Source: an uncultured Rickettsiales bacterium (GTDB lineage: Bacteria; Pseudomonadota; Alphaproteobacteria; Rickettsiales; SXRF01). Taken from it: DNA of 64,000 bases. Below the pieces are notes generated by a model that saw only the letters and a list, made by a program, of their open reading frames with translations, made no database searches and was not told the origin of the DNA. Both the position numbers and the translations under genes were made by a program. This document shows positions 26,405-51,001 of this stretch, piece after piece. The stretch is taken from NCBI GenBank assembly GCA_964469525.1, contig CAYXYU010000002.1, positions 26,687 to 90,686 of the forward strand, in the 5' to 3' direction. Each line of letters begins with the position of its first letter. Position 1 is the stretch's first letter.

Positions 26405-28125
26405 ACGGCGGTCTGCAATACGCGTGACGATGTTTTAGCGGTTAACTGGCTGATGATATCCTGTGCCGGGCCGAAATTGACCATCATCCCCTCCTTCAAT
26501 ATGAGGATACGATCGATTGAAGTAAGGAGCCGCGGGCGGTGGCTGATCACTGCCAGCGTGGAGCCTGCCTGCCTGGCCTGCACCAAGGCACGGATCAGCG
26601 CTTCTTCCCCTTCATTATCCAGGTTGGCGTTGGGCTCATCGAGCACGATGAGCCGGGGCGAATGCAGGAAGGCGCGCGCCAGCCCGATGCGCTGGCGTTG
26701 TCCGGCGGACAGGAGCGTCCCGCTTGGCCCAATCACCGTCTCATATCCCTGGGGCAAGCGCAGGATCAGTTCATGCACCCCCGCCACTTTCGCCGCTTCG
26801 ATTACCGCTTCGTCAGAGACATTCGGCTGCATGCGGGCAATGTTGTCGCGCACCGTGCCTTCAAACAGCCCGACGTCCTGTGGCATATAGCCGATATAGC
26901 GGCCAATCTGCTGCCGATCCCATTGCGTGACGTCGGCGCCATCGAGCCGCACATGTCCGAGGGTAGGGGCCATAATGCCGACCATCAGCCTGCCCAGAGT
27001 CGATTTGCCGGCGGCGCTTGGCCCGATAATGCCGAGGCTCTCGCCCGGCCGCAGATGGAAATTGATGTTGCGCAGGATCGTCAGTTGCTTGCTGCGAATC
27101 AGATAGCTGACATTCTCGACGTGGAGGAATCCCTTGGGTTCCGGCAACAGGATGGTATCCGCCGGTAGCGGCGCCTGCGCGAATTGTTTTTGCAGCCGGT
27201 CGAACGCATCGCGGGCGCCCTCCACCGCGGACCAGATGCCGATGGACTGCTCGAAAGGGGCGAGGGCGCGCGCCGAGAGAATGGAGGCGGCGATGATGCC
27301 GCCGACCGTTGCTTCGTTGGCCAGTGCCAGCCAGCCGCCGCCGCCGATGATGCCGAGCTGCAGCAGCATGCGCACGACACGGCTGATTGACAGGATGACA
27401 GCGGAACGGCTACTTGCTGTTGATTGCAGTGCAAGGGAGGGCTGGTTCTGGGCTATCCAGCGGCGGATGAAATCCTTCTCCATGCCCATGGCCTTGAGGG
27501 TGTCCACGTGATGGGCGGCCTGCTCCAGCTTCTGCAGGCTGATGTTGCTCTCCCGGCTGGCCTGCGTCAAGCTTTCATGGATCGCCAGCTGGTTGATGTA
27601 GGTCAGTGCCAGCAGGGTCAGACCGCCAACCAGCAGCAGCAAACCCAGATATACATGAATAAAGAAGACCGCGACGATAAACAGCAACGCCCAAGGTGCA
27701 TCGAGCAGGCTGACGATGCCGCTGCCGGAGAGGAACTGGCGGATTTTGGCCAGATCGCGGCTGTTCTGGCTGCCGCTCAATCCGGGAGACGTGACAGCGT
27801 TCTCCAGGGAATTGTGTACCACCAGCGGCGTCAGCGTCACATCCACCCATTCGCCGAGCCGTGTCAGAATCAACGAGCGGATGGTGCTGAACAACCCGAG
27901 AAACAGAAAAGCGACGGCAGCCAACAGGGTAAGGAAGAACAGGGTTTCCAGACTATGGCTGGACAGCACCCGGTCGAACACCTGCAAGGAATAGATCGGG
28001 AGCATCAGCATCAACAGGTTATAAATGAGGCTGAAACCGACCAGGCTTAAAAAGACCCGGCGGCACTCCACAATCGCTGCTTCCAACGGGTCGGCAGCCT
28101 TGCCATGCACAAACAGTTTATACAT
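26401..28125 (-). CDS. Type I secretion ABC transporter permease/ATPase (PrtD/AprD type, no C39 domain)
   Basis: 574 aa with a 6-TM region. Walker A is GPSAAGKST, the signature is LSAGQRQR and Walker B is LIVLDEPNANLD. Confidence 0.85.
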   Translation of the reverse strand: MYKLFVHGKAADPLEAAIVECRRVFLSLVGFSLIYNLLMLMLPIYSLQVFDRVLSSHSLETLFFLTLLAAVAFLFLGLFSTIRSLILTRLGEWVDVTLTPLVVHNSLENAVTSPGLSGSQNSRDLAKIRQFLSGSGIVSLLDAPWALLFIVAVFFIHVYLGLLLLVGGLTLLALTYINQLAIHESLTQASRESNISLQKLEQAAHHVDTLKAMGMEKDFIRRWIAQNQPSLALQSTASSRSAVILSISRVVRMLLQLGIIGGGGWLALANEATVGGIIAASILSARALAPFEQSIGIWSAVEGARDAFDRLQKQFAQAPLPADTILLPEPKGFLHVENVSYLIRSKQLTILRNINFHLRPGESLGIIGPSAAGKSTLGRLMVGIMAPTLGHVRLDGADVTQWDRQQIGRYIGYMPQDVGLFEGTVRDNIARMQPNVSDEAVIEAAKVAGVHELILRLPQGYETVIGPSGTLLSAGQRQRIGLARAFLHSPRLIVLDEPNANLDNEGEEALIRALVQARQAGSTLAVISHRPRLLTSIDRILILKEGMMVNFGPAQDIISQLTAKTSSRVLQTAV

Positions 28126-41412: not shown

Positions 41413-41715
41413 ATGCCTGTGATGCAAGGAGAGGGAGGAGAAGCGAAAGTTCTGGAACCTGCGTCACAGCACTGCCGCCTGTCGGAACGTGAATCCGACA
41501 TTATCCGTTGCCTGGTGCACGGCAAGACCAATAAACTGATCGCCCGGCATCTCGGCATAACAGAATCCACCGTCAAAGTGCATTTGAAGACAATCCTGCG
41601 CAAGCTAAGGGTCAGCAACCGCACTCAGGCAGCGTTATGGGCGGTGCAGCACGGTTTTTCACCGGCGCTGGAACCCCCTCCACCTGCAAAAAATCATTTC
41701 ATTCACATCGCGTAA
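41413..41715 (+). CDS. Stand-alone LuxR/GerE-type HTH protein (no receiver or ligand domain)
   Basis: 100 aa. [55 protein letters not shown] is a complete GerE HTH, preceded by only ~25 residues. Confidence 0.7.
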
Positions 41716-41817: not shown

Positions 41818-44800
41818 ATGCCGCGTCAGGATGTGAGTTCGCTTCATTTCGAATCAGCAGTTCGGCTTCTCGATCATCAAGGGAAGCATCGCGTGTACAA
41901 TCAGACAATACGCTCCCTGGAGGAGCAGGATGGGGATGTGCTCGTCGCCGACCGCGGCAACGAGATGACCTATCTGCTGCATGCCTTAAACGCCCTCAAG
42001 AACGGCGAGCCGCTGGTGCGGTTGCCCGCGGAATGGACGGGCATCGCTGGCAAGGTGGCCGACGCCTTTAATGAAGTGGTGGAGATCAATGAACGCATGG
42101 CGGGAGAACTCGGCCGCCTGAGCCAGGCGGTGGGTAAGCAAGGTAAGCTCAGTCAGCGACTTTTTCTAGGAGATACAAGAGGTTTTTGGCGAGAGTCGGT
42201 CGAGTCGGTCAATAACCTGATCGATGACCTCGTCCATCCGACCAGCGAGACGGCGCGCGTGATCGGCGCGGTAGCCCAAGGCGATCTCTCGCAGATGATG
42301 GCGCTCGAAATTGATGGGCGGCCATTGCAGGGCGAATTCCTGCGCACGGCCCGCACCATCAACACCATGGTGGCGCAGCTTTCCTCCTTTGCCTCGGAAG
42401 TGACGCGCGTGGCGCGCGAAGTGGGTACGGAAGGAAAGCTCGGCGGACAGGCGGTAGTGCCGGGCGTCGCCGGTACGTGGGAGGATCTCACCGACTCGGT
42501 GAATATGATGGCAGGCAATTTGACCGCCCAGGTACGCAACATCGCCGAAGTGGCAACCGCTGTGGCGGGCGGCGACCTGTCGCGCAAGATTACCGTAGAC
42601 GTCAAAGGCGAAATCCTTGAGCTGAAAAATACCGTCAATACGATGGTGGACCAGCTCAACTCCTTTGCTGCTGAAGTGACGCGCGTGGCGCGCGAGGTGG
42701 GCACCGAAGGCAAGCTCGGCGGGCAGGCGCGGGTGGAGGGTGTGTCGGGCACCTGGAAAGACCTGACCGACTCGGTGAACTCGATGGCCGGCAACCTGAC
42801 CAGCCAGGTGCGCAACATTGCGCAGGTGACGACCGCCATTGCCAACGGGGACCTGTCGCGCAAGATCACGGTGGACGTCGCCGGCGAAATCCTTGAACTG
42901 AAAGACACGATTAACACGATGGTGGACCAGCTTTCTTCCTTCGCGGCAGAGGTGACGCGTGTGGCGCGCGAAGTGGGCACCGAAGGCAAGCTGGGCGGCC
43001 AGGCCAGGGTGCCGGGCGTAGCTGGTACGTGGAAAGACCTCACCGACTCCGTCAACATGATGGCCGGCAATCTGACCGGGCAGGTGCGCAACATCGCCGA
43101 GGTGGCGACCGCCGTGGCGAACGGTGACCTGTCGAGTAAGATCACGGTGGACGTGGCGGGAGAAATCCTTGAACTTAAGAACACCGTCAACACGATGGTG
43201 GACCAGCTGCGTTCTTTCGCTTCGGAAGTAACGCGCGTGGCGCGCGAAGTGGGCACGGAAGGCAAGCTCGGCGGGCAGGCGCAGGTGGAGGGCGTATCGG
43301 GGACCTGGAAGGATCTGACCGACTCGGTGAACTCGATGGCCGGCAACCTGACCAGCCAGGTGCGCAACATTGCTGACGTGACCAAGGCGGTGGCGGCGGG
43401 TGACCTGTCGAAAAAGATCACAGTGGACGTGGCGGGTGAAATTCTTGAGTTGAAAGATACGATCAATACGATGGTGGACCAGCTATCCTCCTTCGCGGCC
43501 GAAGTGACGCGCGTGGCGCGCGAGGTAGGCACCGAAGGCAAGCTGGGCGGGCAGGCCAAAGTACCGGGCGTAGCCGGCACGTGGAAGGATCTGACGGACT
43601 CGGTGAACATGATGGCCGGCAACCTGACGGCGCAGGTGCGCAACATCGCCGAGGTGGCGACCGCCGTGGCCAACGGCGACCTGTCCAGCAAGATCACGGT
43701 GGATGTGGCGGGCGAAATCCTTGAGTTGAAAGATACCATCAACACCATGGTGGACCAACTCAATTCCTTCGCGGCGGAAGTGACGCGCGTGGCGCGCGAA
43801 GTGGGTACGGAAGGCAAACTCGGCGGCCAGGCCGACGTGAAGGGCGTGGCGGGCACCTGGAAGGACCTCACCGACTCGGTGAATATGATGGCCGGCAACC
43901 TGACCGGTCAGGTACGCAACATCGCGGAAGTGGCGACGGCCATTGCCAGCGGCGACTTGTCGCGCAAGATCACGGTGGACGTGAAAGGGGAAATCCTTGA
44001 GTTGAAAGACACCATCAACACCATGGTGGACCAGTTGAACTCCTTTGCCGCCGAAGTGACGCGCGTGGCGCGCGAAGTGGGCACCGAAGGCAAGCTGGGC
44101 GGACAGGCCGACGTGAAGGGCGTGGCGGGAACATGGAAGGACCTCACCGACTCGGTGAACATGATGGCGGGCAATCTGACGGCCCAGGTGCGTAACATCG
44201 CCGACGTGACCAAGGCGGTGGCGGCGGGTGACCTGTCGAAAAAGATCACGGTGGACGTGAAAGGGGAAATCTGGGAGCTCAAGAACACCATCAACACCAT
44301 GGTGGACCAATTGAACTCCTTCGCGGCGGAAGTGACGCGCGTGGCGCGCGAGGTGGGTACGGAAGGAAAACTCGGCGGCCAGGCGCGGGTGGAAGGCGTA
44401 TCAGGCACCTGGAAGGACCTCACCGACTCCGTGAACCGCATGGCCGACAACCTGACCAGCCAGGTGCGCGGCATCGCCAAGGTGGTGACCTCGGTCGCTA
44501 ACGGCGAACTCAAGCGCAAGCTGACGGTAGAGGCCAAGGGAGAAATCGCCGAACTGGCCGATACCATCAACAATATGATCGACACGCTGGCCACTTTCGC
44601 CGACCAGGTGACCACCGTCGCGCGTGAAGTTGGCGTTGAGGGGCAGCTCGGCGGGCAGGCCAAGGTGCCTGGCGCTTCCGGCACCTGGAAGGGCCTAACC
44701 GAGAACGTGAACCAGCTGGCGGCTAACCTCACCACGCAGGTGCGCGCCATCGCCGAGGTGGCGACCGCGGTGACCAAGGGCGATCTGACGCGCTCCATCA

Positions 44801-47640
44801 CCGTGAAGGCGCAGGGCGAAGTAGCCGCACTCAAAGACACCATTAACGAAATGATCAGCAATCTGCGCGACACGACGCAGAAAAATACCGAGCAGGACTG
44901 GCTTAAAACCAACCTCGCCAAGTTCAGCCGCATGCTGCAGGGCCAGCGCGACCTGACCAACGTCGGGCGCATGGTGCTCTCGGAACTGTGCCCGGTGGTG
45001 GCGGCGCAGCAAGCCGAGTTCTACGTGCTGGATACTGACGGCGACGGCGAGCCGTGCCTGACCCTGCTCGCCAGCTATGCGTCGGAAGGGGTGGGACCGC
45101 TCGGCAAGCAGATCCGCCTCGGCCAGGGCGTCATCGGCCAGTGCGCGCTGGAGAAGGAAAAGATCGCGCTCGACAACCTGCCGCAGGATTATATACGCAT
45201 CTCCTCGGGCCTTGGCGAAGCAAGTCCCCGCAGCATCCTGGTGCTGCCGCTCATCTTCGAAGGCAAGGTGAAGGGTGTGCTGGAGCTGGCCTCGTTCGAG
45301 GGATTCAGTACCTCGCACCGTGCATTCCTGGACCAGTTGACGGAATCGATCGGCATCGTGCTCAACACCATCGAGGCCAACATGCGTACCGAAGGCCTGC
45401 TCGAGCAGTCGCAGTCACTGGCGCAGCAGCTGCAGAGCCGCCAGGAACAGCTGCAGCAGACCAATGAGGAGCTGCAGGAAAAGGCCAGGCTGCTGGCTCG
45501 CCAGAACCAGGAGGTGGAGCGCAAGAACCAGGAAGTGGAGCAGGCCCGGCAGGAGCTGGAGGACAAGGCGAAACAGCTGGCGCTTACCTCCAAGTATAAA
45601 TCGGAATTCCTCGCCAATATGTCGCATGAACTGCGCACGCCGCTCAACAGCCTGCTCATCCTGTCCGACCAGTTAACCAAGAATGCTGAGGGCAACCTGA
45701 CGCCCAAGCAGATCGATTTCACCAAGACCATCCATAGTTCCGGCAACGACCTGCTGATGCTCATCAACGATATTCTCGACCTCTCCAAGATCGAGTCGGG
45801 CACGGTGCAGGTCGAGAGCAGCGAGCTCAGGCTTGAGGATCTCCACGGCTACGTCTCGCGCACCTTCAAGCACGTCGCCGAGTCGAAGAACGTCGAGTTC
45901 GCCATCCACTTCGAGTCCGATCTGCCGAAGTCGATGGTCACCGACGCCAAGCGCCTGCAGCAAATCATCAAGAACCTGCTGTCCAACGCCTTCAAGTTCA
46001 CTCATCATGGCCGGGTAACCCTGACGGCCGGCATGGCGCGCTCCGGCTGGAGCACGTTTAATGAAGAACTGAACCGTGCCTCCGACGTCCTGTTCTTCGA
46101 GGTATCCGATACCGGCATCGGTATTCCGAATGACAAGCAGATGATTATCTTCGAGGCGTTCCAGCAGGCTGACGGTTCCACCAGCCGCAAATATGGCGGT
46201 ACCGGACTGGGCCTTGCCATCAGCCGCGAGCTGTCGCAACTGCTGGGGGGTGAGATTCGCCTCGTATCCAGCCCCGGCCAGGGCAGCACCTTTACCTTGT
46301 ACTTGCCGGTGACCTATTCCGCCAACCGGCCGCGCCGCGGAGGGGAGGCAGCGCTCGAAGCACCTCCGCCTGTGCCGGTCAGCCGCGACACGGTGGCGGT
46401 CGAGCCAATAGAGCCAGAGAACAGCCAGCTGGTGAACGAGATAGGCGATGACCGCCAGTATATCCAGCTCAATGACCATGTAGTGCTCATCGTTGAAAAC
46501 GATCTGGGCTTTGCCCGCTTCCTCCTCGATACCGCGCGGGAGAAGGGGTTCAAGGGACTGGTGACATCGCTGGGAGCGGCGGCGCTGACGCTGACGCATG
46601 ATTACCGTATCGACGCCATCCTGCTGGACATTCATCTGCCGGATATTCAGGGCTGGCGCATCCTTGAGCGGCTCAAGAACGATATCGCCACGCGTCATAT
46701 TCCGGTCTGCGTCATCTCAACCGATGATTCGCGCGATCAGGCGCTGGCAGCCGGAGCGCATAGTTTCCTTGCCAAGCCGATCAGGCAGGGAGAAGTGCTG
46801 GACGGGCTCCTTGCACGTCTGTCGGAATACATTGCGCGGATAAAAAAGAAGGTACTGGTGGCGATGCCGGACGCACAGGCCAGAACCAGCGCGCGGGAAG
46901 TCATTGAGAGCGCCGATATGGAAACGGTGGTGGCCAAGAGCAAGTCGGCAGTGCTCAAGGCGATCGCTAAACAGCCTATCGACTGCATAGTCGTGAGTCC
47001 CGATTGGTTCGACATTGCCGATACGGCGCTTCGCCGGGAAGAGGAAACCGAAGGTGCAGTAAGCCGTATTCCCGTCATTGTGCATGGAGAGGGAGAAGTG
47101 AAGCCCGAGGCGTGGGAACGCGTGAGCCGCCGCACCCGGACCCGCCATGCCCGTTCTCCGGAACGGCTGTTGGATTTTGTCAGCGCTGCCGTGCATCGCA
47201 ACATTGCCGTGCTGCCCGAGGACAGGCGCCGCATGCTGACCGACATGCATCAGTCCGACCGTATACTGGCGGGCAAGAAGGTGTTGATCGTGGATGATGA
47301 TGCACGCAATATTTTCGCCCTGACCAGCGTGTTGGAAGAGCACCGCATGACTATTCTCTCTTCCGATAATGGGCGCGATGCTATTAAGCTGCTGCAGGAC
47401 GAGCCGGACGTGGATATGGTGCTGATGGACATCATGATGCCGGAAATGGATGGTATGCAGACCATACGTGAAATCCGCAAGCTACCGGCGCTGAAGGATC
47501 TTCCGATCGTTGCCGTCACCGCCAAAGCCATGAAGGGCGATCGCGAAAAATGCATCGAGGCGGGCGCCTGGGATTATCTTTCCAAGCCGGTCAACCCCGA
47601 ACAGATGATGGCAGTGCTGCGCGCCTGGCTGATGCGCTAG
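41818..47640 (+). CDS. Soluble poly-HAMP / GAF hybrid histidine kinase with REC, pseudo-REC and REC domains (1940 aa)
   Basis: No TM segment. About 20 HAMP-like units are followed by a GAF-like region, a coiled coil and the H-box [15 protein letters not shown]. HATPase ([15 protein letters not shown]) and three receiver-like domains complete it. The start is uncertain (ATG 41818 lacks an RBS; GTG 41893 has AAGGGAAG upstream). Confidence 0.85.
42300..44880 (+). repeat. Nine in-frame tandem repeats of exactly 276 bp (92 aa, two HAMP units each)
   Basis: The marker gaagtgacgcgcgtggcgcgcga (or a close variant) recurs at 42397, 42673, 42949, 43225, 43501, 43777, 44053, 44329 and 44605. The array bounds are approximate. 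Confidence 0.9.
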
Positions 47641-47650
47641 CGGAGGCGGC

Positions 47651-49285
47651 ATGCACGAAGCCCTCGCGATCTCAACCTCCAGGAATGATACCGAGCCGAC
47701 GCCCTCGGCTGTTGAAGACGCGGATCGCGTCAAGATTCTCATTGTCGACGACCTGCCGGAAAACCGGATGGCTTATTGCGCCATCCTGGAGGAGCTGGGG
47801 CAGGAGATAGTAACCGCCGGCTCAGGCAGGGATGCGCTCAAGCTGGTGCTGCAGCACGAGTTCGCCGTCATACTGCTGGACGTCAACCTTCCGGAGATGG
47901 ATGGGTTCGAAATCGCCACCCTTATCCGCAGCCGCCGTGGCTCGGCGCGGACCCCGATAATATTCCTTACCGCCTTTACCGACGAGGTACGCATGGCGCA
48001 GGGCTATGCCAGCGGCGCCGTGGACTATCTGCCGACGCCGGTGGTACCGGGCATCCTGCAGGCCAAGGTGCGCGTCTTCATCGAGCTGTCGCAGATGCGA
48101 CGCCAGGCTGCGCTGCAGGCGGAGGAACGCGCGCGTCGCACGGCGGCCGAAGAGGCAGACCGCCGAAAGGATGAATTCCTCGGGATGTTGTCGCATGAGC
48201 TCCGTAATCCGCTCGGTCCTATCCTGAATGCCGCGCACCTGCTGCGCCGCATCGCCACCGATGACGCACGCTTGCAGGAAGTGGGCGGTATCCTTGACCG
48301 TCAGGTCAAGCATATGACGCGCCTGATCGACGATCTGCTCGATGCCACCCGGCTCGCCCATGGCAAGATATTGCTCAGGAAGGAACGTTGCGACCTGGTG
48401 CAGATCATCCGTCAGACCGTCGAGGATTACCGTAGTATTTTCGACATGCGTCAGCTGCGGCTGGAAACCAGCCTGCCAAATTCGCCGGTCTGGATGACCG
48501 GGGATCCGACCCGGCTGGTACAGTCCATCGGCAACCTGCTGCATAATGCTCACAAATTCACCGACCCGGGCGGCCTGGTAAAGATTGCACTGGAAACCAG
48601 CGGCCAGACGGCTGAAATCCGCGTCACCGATACCGGCATCGGTATCGACGCAGCACTAATCCCTCACGTTTTCGAGGTATTCCGGCAGGCCGAACAGGGG
48701 CTGGATCACGGTGGCGGAGGCCTTGGCCTCGGTCTCGCCCTGCTCAAAGGATTGATCGAGCTGCATGGAGGCGATGTCTTTGTCAGCAGCGATGGGCCGG
48801 GCAAGGGAACCAAATTCACGCTGCGGCTGCCGATTGAGGGGGCCTCCGTGCCGGCTGCGCTCCCGCAGCCGGGCATTGCGCCGTCCAACCCAGCAAGCTG
48901 CCGCGTGCTTCTTATCGAGGATAACAAGCTGACTGCCGAAAGCACGCAGATGCTCCTGAGCATGGACGGGTATGAGGTGCATATGGCGCATAGCGGCCCC
49001 AGCGGTCTCGAAATGGCGAAGACCTTCCGTCCGCAGGTGATACTGTGCGATATCGGGCTGCCGGGAATGGACGGCTATCAGGTGGCGCGCCAGATACGTC
49101 AGGACACAAGGCTTTCCTCCTCATACATGATTGCACTTACCGGTTACGGCCGTGAGCAGGATCTGCGCCAGACCTGGGAGGCGGGTTTCGACCTGCATAT
49201 GATCAAGCCTGTCGATTATGAAAATCTGCGACGCACGCTGGCGGCCCTTCCGGCGAGGAACGGCGGGCATGGCGGGAAAGCCTGA
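47651..49285 (+). CDS. REC - histidine kinase - REC hybrid protein
   Basis: RBS GGAGG sits 4 nt upstream. REC (ILIVDDLPEN...LLDVNLPEMDG) is followed by the H-box FLGMLSHELRNPL, HATPase (DTGIGI, GGGLGLGLAL) and a second REC (VLLIEDN...ILCDIGLPGMDG...KPV). Confidence 0.85.
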   Translation: MHEALAISTSRNDTEPTPSAVEDADRVKILIVDDLPENRMAYCAILEELGQEIVTAGSGRDALKLVLQHEFAVILLDVNLPEMDGFEIATLIRSRRGSARTPIIFLTAFTDEVRMAQGYASGAVDYLPTPVVPGILQAKVRVFIELSQMRRQAALQAEERARRTAAEEADRRKDEFLGMLSHELRNPLGPILNAAHLLRRIATDDARLQEVGGILDRQVKHMTRLIDDLLDATRLAHGKILLRKERCDLVQIIRQTVEDYRSIFDMRQLRLETSLPNSPVWMTGDPTRLVQSIGNLLHNAHKFTDPGGLVKIALETSGQTAEIRVTDTGIGIDAALIPHVFEVFRQAEQGLDHGGGGLGLGLALLKGLIELHGGDVFVSSDGPGKGTKFTLRLPIEGASVPAALPQPGIAPSNPASCRVLLIEDNKLTAESTQMLLSMDGYEVHMAHSGPSGLEMAKTFRPQVILCDIGLPGMDGYQVARQIRQDTRLSSSYMIALTGYGREQDLRQTWEAGFDLHMIKPVDYENLRRTLAALPARNGGHGGKA

Positions 49286-49668
49286 TGACTGAAAAAATCA
49301 TCCCCGCAGACGTAGAGAAGTTTCTCCTTAAGCATATTGATTCGGTTGCCGAATGGGAAGGGCTGCTGCTGCTGCGCGCTCATCCGGCAACGGAATGGGA
49401 TGCTCAAACGGTTGCCCGAAACCTCTACGTTACTGAGCAGGAGGCGGCGCAGCTGCTGACGAACCTGGCGGCGAAAGGTTTTCTGGCTGTCGCTGGAGAA
49501 ACCGTGCGCTACCGATATCAGGTGGCCCAGCCTAAGCTGGAAACGGAAGTGGCGCGCGCTGCTGACTTGTATAAGCGGCGGCTGATTCCCATTACCAACC
49601 TCATTCACTCCAAAGCAAAAAAGCGAATCCAGGCGTTTGCCGACGCCTTCCGCATACGAAAGGACTGA
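49285..49668 (+). CDS. Hypothetical 127-aa cytoplasmic protein
   Basis: Its ATG shares a base with the upstream stop (TGATG). The product is helical with no motif I recognise. The coding call rests on coupling and codon usage. Confidence 0.55.
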   Translation: MTEKIIPADVEKFLLKHIDSVAEWEGLLLLRAHPATEWDAQTVARNLYVTEQEAAQLLTNLAAKGFLAVAGETVRYRYQVAQPKLETEVARAADLYKRRLIPITNLIHSKAKKRIQAFADAFRIRKD

Positions 49669-49670
49669 CT

Positions 49671-49928
49671 ATGGCTGGAATTATTTACGGACTCTGTGCG
49701 CTGACGGCCCTGCTATGCTCCTGGCAGCTGTTGCAGGCTTATGCTGCCACGCGCTACCGACTGCTGCTCTGGGGCGGACTCTGTTTCGTCGGCCTTACCT
49801 TCAATGGAATCATTCTGGTATTCGACAAGCTGTACGTGCCCGTCATGGATCTGTCGCTCTGGCGCATGACAAGCGCGATGCTTTCGTTATCGATACTTCT
49901 CTACGGGCTTATCTGGGACATGGAGTAA
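49671..49928 (+). CDS. Small 3-TM membrane protein (DUF5985-like, from memory)
   Basis: It starts 2 nt after the previous stop. 85 aa with three hydrophobic helices (IIYGLCALTALLCSWQLL..., LLLWGGLCFVGLTFNGIILVF, SAMLSLSILLYGLIW). Confidence 0.6.
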   Translation: MAGIIYGLCALTALLCSWQLLQAYAATRYRLLLWGGLCFVGLTFNGIILVFDKLYVPVMDLSLWRMTSAMLSLSILLYGLIWDME

Positions 49929-49933
49929 GCAAC

Positions 49934-50251
49934 ATGGACAATGTGCAATTAATGATGCTGGGTGCCATTATTATGGCCTGCTTCTGCGCAGCCCTCTTCT
50001 TCCTGCGTTTCTGGAAAACCACCCGCGACCGCTTCTTCCTGTTCTTCTCGGCGGCGTTCTTCATCGAAGGCATCAACCGCATACTGCAGGGAATTATGCG
50101 ATCGCGGGACGAGCAGGACCCGATTATCTACTTCATCCGCCTGGTAGCCTTCCTGATCATCCTCTACGCTATCATCGACAAAAACCTCGTCAGAAAAAAC
50201 ACCTTATCCAAAGGCACCGGTACTCCCCCATTGCCGCTACAGGACCGTTAA
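49934..50251 (+). CDS. Small 3-TM membrane protein, paralogue-like partner of the previous gene
   Basis: ATG 49934 with GGAG upstream. It has three helices (LMMLGAIIMACFCAALFFL, FFLFFSAAFFIEGINRIL, IIYFIRLVAFLIILYAII). Confidence 0.6.
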   Translation: MDNVQLMMLGAIIMACFCAALFFLRFWKTTRDRFFLFFSAAFFIEGINRILQGIMRSRDEQDPIIYFIRLVAFLIILYAIIDKNLVRKNTLSKGTGTPPLPLQDR

Positions 50252-50323
50252 GCGTCGCTGTTTATCCGTTTCTTATCTATACCGCTTAGCTCCTTCTTTG
50301 TTTTTGATAAGGGATTTAGTAGC

Positions 50324-50347
50324 CTGCAGCTGCAGCTGCAGCTGCAG
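50324..50347. repeat. (CTGCAG)x4 perfect palindromic hexanucleotide microsatellite
   Basis: Read directly: ctgcagctgcagctgcagctgcag, 53-76 nt upstream of the ChaB-like ATG. Confidence 0.95.
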
Positions 50348-50399
50348 CTTAACCGCGGCGCGCTGCAGGCCGCATTCATTCATAAAACGAGAAACGCGC

Positions 50400-50651
50400 A
50401 TGCCGTATCGAAGCAACCAGGATTTGCCTGGCAGTGTGAAGAGCAACCTGCCGCTGCATGCTCAGGATATCTACCGCGAAGCGTTCAACCATGCCTGGGA
50501 CGAATACCGCGACCCGGACAAGCGCCGCAGAGGAGGATCGCAGGAGGAAACTGCCTATCGTGTGGCATGGGCTGCGGTGAAACAGAAATATAAAAAACGC
50601 GGCGACCGGTGGGTAAGCAAGGAATCAGAGAATAACGGAGGAAAACAATGA
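50400..50651 (+). CDS. ChaB family protein
   Basis: LPGSVKSNLPLHAQDIYREAFNHAWDEY...AYRVAWAAVKQKYKK matches the ChaB pattern. Confidence 0.75.
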   Translation: MPYRSNQDLPGSVKSNLPLHAQDIYREAFNHAWDEYRDPDKRRRGGSQEETAYRVAWAAVKQKYKKRGDRWVSKESENNGGKQ

Positions 50652-51001
50652 CGAGTGCCAGTCACATAGACTCGGTGAATCTGCTGCGGGAGTGCCGCGA
50701 CATTTGTCTGGAGACCTTCTCCTTGCACTGCATGAAGGCCGGCGGGCAGCAGTTGGCTAGAGAGCATATACGCCGTATGGAGTCCTGCGTCGAGTTGTGC
50801 CAGCTTACTGCCAATTTCCTGCTGCGGCACTCGCCGCATACCCAGGATCTCTGTGATCTTACGGCCGAATCCTGCAAGCAGTATGCCGCCAGCTGCAACG
50901 CGATGGACGACGCGCACATGCAGCGCTGCGCACGCGCCTGCGAGGCAGCGGCCAGGGTATGCCTCGAGGAGAGCCACCACCTGCGGGCGGTTGCGGCGTA
51001 G
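50648..51001 (+). CDS. Cys-rich four-helix-bundle protein (DUF326 / copper-binding type)
   Basis: ATGA overlap with the ChaB gene. It has 11 Cys in 117 aa, arranged as CxxxC / Cx7C along predicted helices (CRDIC, CVELC, CDLTAESC, CKQYAASC, CARAC). Confidence 0.7.
   Translation: MTSASHIDSVNLLRECRDICLETFSLHCMKAGGQQLAREHIRRMESCVELCQLTANFLLRHSPHTQDLCDLTAESCKQYAASCNAMDDAHMQRCARACEAAARVCLEESHHLRAVAA

Follow-up and report, generated by a model that had tools for sequence, protein, structure and literature searches.

What kind of protein is encoded by a gene whose N-terminal half is an array of strictly spaced 276-nucleotide repeats in the small genome of an uncultured Rickettsiales bacterium, and does the length of this array set it apart from its relatives? 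The gene lies on the forward strand of contig CAYXYU010000002.1 (assembly GCA_964469525.1), within the 64,000-nucleotide stretch from position 26,687 to 90,686 that was analyzed as a whole (the window; all positions below count from its first nucleotide), and the frame of 1940 codons at 41818-47640 (+) is the sole long open frame at its locus. A preliminary description had presented its product as a soluble kinase with a poly-HAMP array of exceptional length, resembling the group III kinases of fungi. The analysis reported here indicates, with a probability of roughly 90%, that the gene codes for a cytoplasmic dimeric poly-HAMP kinase of the AskA/AskB type ('class III'), including the rod and relay mechanism outlined below. 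The window kinase is an ordinary, rather short member of a published and widespread bacterial family. The parts of the gene and of its product are as follows:

41818..47640, + strand: whole open reading frame, a soluble poly-HAMP hybrid histidine kinase of maximally 1940 amino acids (open reading frame, Pfam, hydropathy)
41818..41967, + strand: N-terminal tail, amino acids 1-50 (alignments of homologues begin at about amino acids 40-53)
41968..44865, + strand: poly-HAMP array of 21 HAMP domains of 46 amino acids each, amino acids 51-1016 (9trk_A alignment, Pfam, 46-residue register)
42397..44880, + strand: nine units of 276 nucleotides (92 amino acids) in the register of the preliminary description (Tandem Repeats Finder, marker motif)
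44947..45363, + strand: GAF domain, amino acids 1044-1182 (Pfam GAF_2, E 5.5e-19)
45373..45582, + strand: coiled-coil linker between GAF and DHp, amino acids 1186-1255 (repeat finding, translation, conservation)
45598..45801, + strand: HisKA/DHp domain, amino acids 1261-1328, with the H-box SHELRTPLN (His1270) (Pfam, motif)
45943..46314, + strand: HATPase_c catalytic domain, amino acids 1376-1499, with intact N, G1 (DTGIGI) and G2 (GGTGLGL) boxes (Pfam)
46483..46800, + strand: receiver 1, amino acids 1556-1661, with Asp1604, Thr1635 and Lys1653 present (excised segment matched by Pfam Response_reg, E 5e-16)
46876..47262, + strand: pseudo-receiver, amino acids ~1687-1815, with Ser1727 at the position of the phospho-acceptor Asp (sub-threshold Response_reg, E 0.17)
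47281..47619, + strand: receiver 3, amino acids 1822-1934, canonical, with DDD, Asp1871, Thr1901 and Lys1923 (Pfam, motif)

Structures of the AskA array provide evidence for the family assignment. Residues 51-328 of the window protein align without a gap to residues 52-329 of 9trk_A, a 6-HAMP construct of AskA (E 2.3e-116), with an overall identity of 69% that rises to 86% within the regular modules, and the array is also alignable to the shorter 4-HAMP construct of the same protein, 9trj_A. This gap-free alignment to 9trk_A establishes the 46-residue register of the HAMP domains and hence their count of 21: a leading canonical HAMP, which is alignable to HAMP1 of AskA but not to the later units, and ten di-HAMP modules of 92 residues, each made up of a non-canonical and a canonical HAMP, which follow without linkers. 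The protein further displays the other hallmarks of the family, namely a poly-HAMP region with a strict 92-residue period, solubility, the domain order GAF-HisKA-HATPase_c-REC (REC, receiver) and the interface tryptophan, which is found as GTW or GFW in all ten non-canonical HAMPs. No transmembrane segment was detected in the 1940-residue protein with 19-residue Kyte-Doolittle windows, the maximum of 1.47 falling within the GAF domain, and the preliminary description had been correct on this point. A dedicated upstream sensor domain is likewise absent, the only region ahead of HAMP1 being a tail of about 50 residues without conservation. Judged by their catalytic and phospho-acceptor motifs, the kinase core and two of the receivers are intact.

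A protein search recovered at least 8000 relatives, and those among the matches listed measure 2000-2900 residues and for the most part go by the name 'HAMP domain-containing protein'. The bacterial proteins AskA, AskB and Amb07 have been described as group III hybrid kinases with poly-HAMP regions that are extended in comparison with Nik1 (Marcos-Torres et al. 2020, PMC7643160). The category of 'kinase-associated poly-HAMP arrays' situated upstream of GAF-DHp-CA-REC was defined by Coles et al. 2026 (PMC13446029), who counted 4778 poly-HAMP kinases in NR90 and tied the class III kinases of fungi and amoebozoans to the kinase-associated arrays; PDB entries 9TRK and 9TRJ are crystal structures of the 6-HAMP and 4-HAMP constructs of Myxococcus xanthus AskA from the same work, in which plain HAMP bundles are seen (PMC13446029).

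Within the gene, Tandem Repeats Finder recovers a single array with a period of 276 and 8.8 copies (42354-44787; 78% matches, 0% indels, score 2452), and a ten-residue marker recurs at steps of 276 nucleotides from 42397 to 44605, eight times in its main form and once in a variant form. The nine regularly spaced occurrences noted in the preliminary description are thus confirmed, with no indels, though its term 'exact' is appropriate for the spacing and not for the sequences, which are not identical. The two to three degenerate HAMP-like units that it had placed ahead of the nine correspond to three HAMP domains (amino acids 51-188), the first di-HAMP module (amino acids 97-188) being degenerate. 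That the units are HAMP domains, for which it had proposed a profile search, follows from the nine HAMP and ten HAMP_2 stretches that Pfam finds over the array and from the alignment to 9trk_A. At the protein level there is little difference among units 1-7, with units 6 and 7 sharing the 43-residue string to which attention had already been drawn; units 8 and 9 have diverged and are specific to their positions. An alternation of two subtypes, also proposed earlier, is seen in units 1-5, but units 6 and 7 represent a third type, marked by VKGVAG.

Several other Pfam names, SpoIIID, HTH_6, GatB_Yqey, DUF1759 and PseudoU_synth_1, appear over the same region (amino acids 300-850, ~42700-44400) and were rejected as domains of the array, since no individual stretch is significant. 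Their totals, which are above or near the cut-offs, are sums of weak matches over the repeated HAMP helices. As none of them passes as a single stretch, the names that recall a helix-turn-helix are no evidence of such folds.

With respect to the length of the array, a species-level scan, in which each species was represented by a single genome, yielded at least 600 matches, of which the best 80 loci were kept. These 80 loci are spread over more than 10 phyla, including Planctomycetota, Acidobacteriota, Cyanobacteriota, Pseudomonadota, Bacteroidota, Verrucomicrobiota, Bacillota, Actinomycetota and Myxococcota, among others. When followed with a profile of the window units, the 92-residue spacing is strict in all 80 apart from a few isolated steps of 93 residues and one disrupted interval. 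The number of units per protein, counted by hand from the unit-profile table of these loci, is distributed as follows: 7 units in 4 loci, 8 in 3, 9 in 4, 10 in 18, 11 in 2, 12 in 37, 13 in 5, 14 in 3, 15 in 3 and 16 in 1. The mode is 12 units, equivalent to 25 HAMPs, and the maximum among the 80 loci is 16. On the same count the window kinase has 10 units, which is the second commonest class; by the standard of the family, then, this array is of typical to short length and not unusually long. The preliminary description had called the array much longer than those known and had suggested that the repeat number be compared in orthologues; with that comparison made on the 80 loci, the claim falls when the bacterial family is taken as the standard, given that 12 units are its mode, that up to 16 occur and that AskB has 31 HAMPs (PMC13446029).

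The sequences of the units also provide information on how the array has evolved. Pairwise identities among units 1-7 are 84-93% at the protein level and 78-86% at the DNA level, with a mean synonymous divergence (dS) of 0.79 (0.57-1.12), a mean nonsynonymous divergence (dN) of 0.085 (0.04-0.145) and a dN/dS of ~0.11. A dS of ~0.8 combined with this low ratio points to old copies, with strong purifying selection acting on every unit. The orthologous protein of a congener (genome G003) is 85% identical, and its units, again ten in number, run collinear with those of the window. Between the two species positional orthology is clear for units 2, 7, 8 and 9, with 96-99% protein identity, and units 1 and 3-6 are without a clear one-to-one partner. 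A nucleotide tree of units from five species unites the copies of unit 8 in one clade across phyla and those of unit 9 in another, and the interior units are mostly grouped by lineage, as exemplified by all seven of Gemmata, blocks in Trinickia, and units 2 and 3 as well as units 4, 5 and 7 of the congener. The dS between positional partners of the window and the congener is 0.65-1.85, about as large as that found within the array. Given this similarity of divergence between and within arrays, the interior units appear to have been copied or converted at roughly the time scale of a genus, with the ends of the array remaining fixed, and the pattern indicates turnover or gene conversion among interior units 1-7. 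The unit phylogeny, which had been suggested as a check, thus qualifies the earlier view that each unit is individually maintained: the units are not recent copies and the end units are indeed fixed, but the interior ones cluster by lineage.

The preliminary description had further supposed that the array grew by duplications of two units. Within the window array, units 2 and 4 and units 3 and 5 are the most similar pairs, with 86% nucleotide identity each; the longest exact repeat within the array measures 59 nucleotides and lies at an offset of 552; and the identity, averaged by hand, is ~83% for units two apart versus ~81.5% for adjacent ones, a difference that is driven by these same two pairs. 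These observations lend weak support to, at most, one old two-unit duplication that would have given rise to units 4 and 5 from units 2 and 3. As a general rule, growth by 552-bp steps was rejected, since Tandem Repeats Finder reports only the period of 276 and the pattern of the congener differs, with unit 2 close to unit 3, and units 4, 5 and 7 close to each other.

Comparison across phyla reveals unequal conservation among the parts of the protein. Identities are 81-93% for the regular modules (units 1-9; the truncated frame of G017/L083 is omitted from this range), 71-91% for the DHp domain, 62-78% for the catalytic domain, 49-77% for the GAF domain and 22-44% for the pseudo-receiver, which is the least conserved folded part even among the homologues that retain it. 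Against L057 and L068, whose open frames are without the C-terminal part, the value for the pseudo-receiver is 8-15%. The regular modules are accordingly more conserved than the catalytic domain and, in most loci, at or above the level of the DHp domain. That the modules are the best conserved part across phyla argues for constraint on the surface of the rod and not on its core alone. The coiled-coil linker between the GAF and DHp domains shows 86-93% identity to its nearest homologues (L082, L083, L001, L041, L002 and L003) and 61-74% to distant loci. It contains a 21-nucleotide tandem repeat in two copies (CGCAAGAACCAGGAAGTGGAG, 45499-45541) that translates into a doubled heptad, RKNQEVE/RQNQEVE; a length change by one heptad in this coiled coil would preserve the helical register.

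The N-terminal boundary of the protein is less certain than its domains. The first 40-50 residues are unconserved across the family, including the congener, and are not markedly basic. The ATG at 41818 is accompanied by a GGAG, which is however distant. A GTG that lies in the same frame at 41938 (codon 41) follows GGAGGAG by about 11 nucleotides and constitutes a candidate alternative start. Because of the unconserved leader and this better placed GTG, the true product may comprise about 1900 rather than 1940 residues; the length given in the preliminary description thus holds for the maximal open reading frame, with the start of the product being uncertain.

These features, taken with the AskA structures and models, permit a mechanism to be proposed. 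In the dimer the array would form a continuous parallel four-helix rod, in which adjacent HAMPs would lock one another into packing states that alternate (x-da, knobs-into-holes, da-x). Canonical and non-canonical HAMPs would alternate between opposite rotated packings, such that the entire array would be held under conformational tension. At any point of the rod, an alteration in how the helices are rotated or in how stable the bundle is could then serve as the trigger, as could a ligand of the GAF domain, and the resulting shift in the packing equilibrium would reach the junction of the GAF and DHp domains to set the balance between kinase and phosphatase states and with it the autophosphorylation at His1270. 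From His1270 the phosphoryl group would pass to the protein's own receivers (Asp1604 and Asp1871), and probably also to or from the receivers of a co-transcribed REC-HK-REC kinase (HK, histidine kinase), in a multi-kinase relay like that of AskA, AskB and AskC, the latter being one that responds to ambruticin, glycerol or starvation. Support for such a relay comes from the gene order, with the REC-HK-REC gene lying 10 nucleotides downstream. Candidate inputs would include influences of a physical or chemical nature that act on the rod, as has been argued for fungal Nik1, a GAF ligand and partner proteins; by analogy to AskA/AskB and fungal Nik1 the signal is most likely a solute, osmotic or stress cue that is sensed by the rod itself and not by a dedicated sensor domain.

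The genes around the kinase that are pertinent to this proposal are the following:

41413..41715, + strand: upstream stand-alone GerE/LuxR helix-turn-helix gene, 100 amino acids (Pfam GerE, E 2.4e-20)
47651..49285, + strand: soluble REC-HisKA-HATPase-REC hybrid kinase, 544 amino acids, 10 nucleotides past the stop codon of the poly-HAMP gene (Pfam, hydropathy)
49285-49668, + strand: soluble protein of 127 amino acids (same operon)
49671-49928 and 49934-50251, + strand: two DUF5985 proteins with three transmembrane segments each (Pfam DUF5985, E 2e-24 and 1e-24)

By position, the second kinase corresponds to AskC of Myxococcus, a hybrid kinase encoded immediately downstream of askB, whose receiver binds the Rec3 domain of AskA (PMC7643160). 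An orthologue of the REC-HK-REC kinase with 72% identity directly follows the poly-HAMP gene in the congener as well. Among the 78 downstream genes that were scanned (those of 77 loci plus the window's own), 56 code for a protein led by a REC domain, 44 for a kinase ATPase domain and 16 for a CheR methyltransferase. With CheR in 16 of 78 downstream genes, some kinase-type HAMP rods may be subject to methylation. The CheR-type methyltransferase, of ~275-290 residues, stands directly after the poly-HAMP kinase, in the place of a REC-led kinase, in L004, L005, L011, L023, L024, L038, L047, L048, L058, L065, L070, L073, L075, L076, L079 and others.

In genome G017, which represents a different family within the order, the complete set of five genes recurs in the same arrangement (L096, G017:C168, 5257-7280). 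In all, DUF5985 is present in two of the 21 related genomes, namely that of the window and G017, each time right behind the poly-HAMP kinase. The pair made up of the 127-residue protein and DUF5985 is also found beside poly-HAMP genes in 5 of the 80 distant loci (L016, L023, L037, L051 and L052), which belong to an acetobacter, a Cellvibrionaceae bacterium, two Acidobacteriota and Prosthecobacter. On the basis of this co-occurrence it might be speculated that the five genes are a single conserved module, in which the DUF5985 mini-proteins supply the rod with an input derived from the membrane; this is a tentative proposal that we hold to be doubtful, as the locus of the congener keeps the two kinases without the small genes and 75 of the 80 loci are devoid of them within 8 kb.

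The upstream LuxR/GerE gene was considered as a conserved output of the family and rejected, there being matches in only 2 of the 80 loci and none at the locus of the congener; it may still have a local role. Further downstream, an open reading frame for a Cys-rich protein of 117 residues (50648-51001), which is without a Pfam match, begins within the end of a ChaB-family gene (50298-50651).

Certain points weigh against the assignment and the mechanism attached to it. The window protein is known here from its gene sequence alone, the number of its units was read from assembled contigs only, and the likeness of the 47651-49285 product to AskC is drawn only from its position and domain order. 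Furthermore, the role of signalling through such arrays 'remains unclear' according to the structure paper itself (PMC13446029). Three other explanations have been weighed against this background.

The one that survives best holds that the gene arrived recently by horizontal transfer and is a passenger without an integrated role in a small genome. The poly-HAMP gene is patchily distributed, occurring in 4 of the 21 related genomes, and a tree built from the C-terminal half joins the window sequence, the congener and G017 in one clade that is nested, with a support of 100, among sequences from Gemmataceae (L001, L041), Planctomycetaceae, Trinickia and Methylococcaceae (L003, L002 and L045 being the others named). 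This nesting, in conjunction with the patchy occurrence among relatives, makes an inter-phylum transfer of the whole kinase likely. The flanks, too, are not common to the congener, and the flanking PhaC is nearest to PhaC of metagenome-assembled genomes of uncultured Gammaproteobacteria (44-55% identity). However, a transferred gene need not be without function: this one is intact, comparison with both the congener and the relative from another family of the order shows it to be under purifying selection, its G+C content and that of its third codon positions are near those of the surroundings, and the five-gene operon is retained in G017. A passenger without a role is consequently unlikely.

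Slightly less probable still is the idea that the array serves mainly as a DNA-binding or scaffolding rod, as has been proposed for AskB, with the kinase being regulated through the GAF domain or partners. AskB, and AskA in a pull-down, bound promoter DNA in vitro, and partial helix-turn-helix-like Pfam matches over the HAMPs have been reported for both proteins (PMC7643160), just as the names SpoIIID and HTH_6 surface here; the extreme conservation of the module surface across phyla would also suit a conserved binding partner. Against this, the latter names are sums of weak repeat matches with no single passing stretch, the crystal structure shows plain HAMP bundles, and the N-terminal tail is neither conserved nor markedly basic. 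Sensing and transmission by the rod thus remain the preferred interpretation of the array.

Finally, that the repeat number is an artefact, with near-identical repeats collapsed or expanded in a short-read assembly, is highly improbable: the genome is indeed a 2.16-Mb draft of 28 contigs, and the drafts G005 and G017 break the homologous gene at contig ends inside the array, which shows that arrays of this kind can defeat assembly, but the units differ at 14-22% of their nucleotides, the frame is open and perfectly phased, ten units are the second commonest class of the family, the longest exact repeat of 59 nucleotides is below an ordinary read length, and in the congener, whose assembly is independent, the units are likewise ten and collinear throughout.

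Since the family, its link to the kinases targeted by fungicides in fungi, the modular growth by di-HAMPs and the structure are already published, the finding of one more member matters little on its own. Its added value lies firstly in a quantitative account of array evolution, with ends that are fixed across phyla, an interior that turns over at about the depth of a genus and modules that are 81-93% identical. Secondly, the tally of downstream partners shows mostly a second kinase led by a REC domain, and CheR in about one fifth of the loci. Thirdly, the recurrent link to the DUF5985 mini-proteins could lead to the input of poly-HAMP kinases and is, along with the 127-residue neighbor, a lead worth keeping.

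The window kinase can be placed with respect to three known systems. The chemoreceptor-associated poly-HAMP arrays, together with multi-HAMP receptors such as Aer2, have the same alternation of canonical and non-canonical HAMPs, are likewise soluble and have inter-HAMP linkers of equal length (PMC13446029). They differ in possessing HAMP types A and B, a phenylalanine in place of the tryptophan at the interface and a methyl-accepting domain at the end, and the NCBIfam Aer2 model scores 283 bits on the window array against a cut-off of 1200.

The fungal group III kinases (Nik1/Os-1/TcsC/Bos1) resemble the window kinase in lacking a membrane anchor and in having an N-terminal half composed of a chain of 92-residue HAMP pairs (PMC3848655, PMC13446029); CaNik1p, for instance, has four such pairs and one single HAMP (PMC3848655). 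The fungal side of this likeness is taken from the literature. Fungal members have about 9-12 HAMPs, whereas the window kinase has 21, and in the fungal architecture the array leads straight into HisKA-HATPase and one receiver, whereas the window kinase has a GAF domain and three receiver-like domains. The fungal kinases feed the Ypd1-Ssk1-HOG pathway, and to our knowledge they have a single receiver and are devoid of a GAF domain. The resemblance to them that was put forward in the preliminary description is therefore sound as regards the 92-residue di-HAMP period and solubility, but it had already been published, and the proper comparison is with the bacterial family of AskA, AskB and Amb07.

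Relative to AskA (MXAN_0712) and AskB (MXAN_6735) of Myxococcus xanthus, the window kinase resides in a host with a genome of ~2.2 Mb and no known developmental cycle, its operon adds the 127-residue protein and the two DUF5985 membrane mini-proteins, and its array is shorter than that of AskB, with 21 versus 31 HAMPs. It is similar to these proteins and to Amb07 of Sorangium cellulosum in the following features: all are soluble, begin their arrays with a canonical HAMP followed by 92-residue di-HAMPs, conserve the interface tryptophan and continue into GAF-DHp-CA with three receiver-like domains; and, as in the case of AskB, the next gene downstream codes for another hybrid kinase (askC there, 47651-49285 here).

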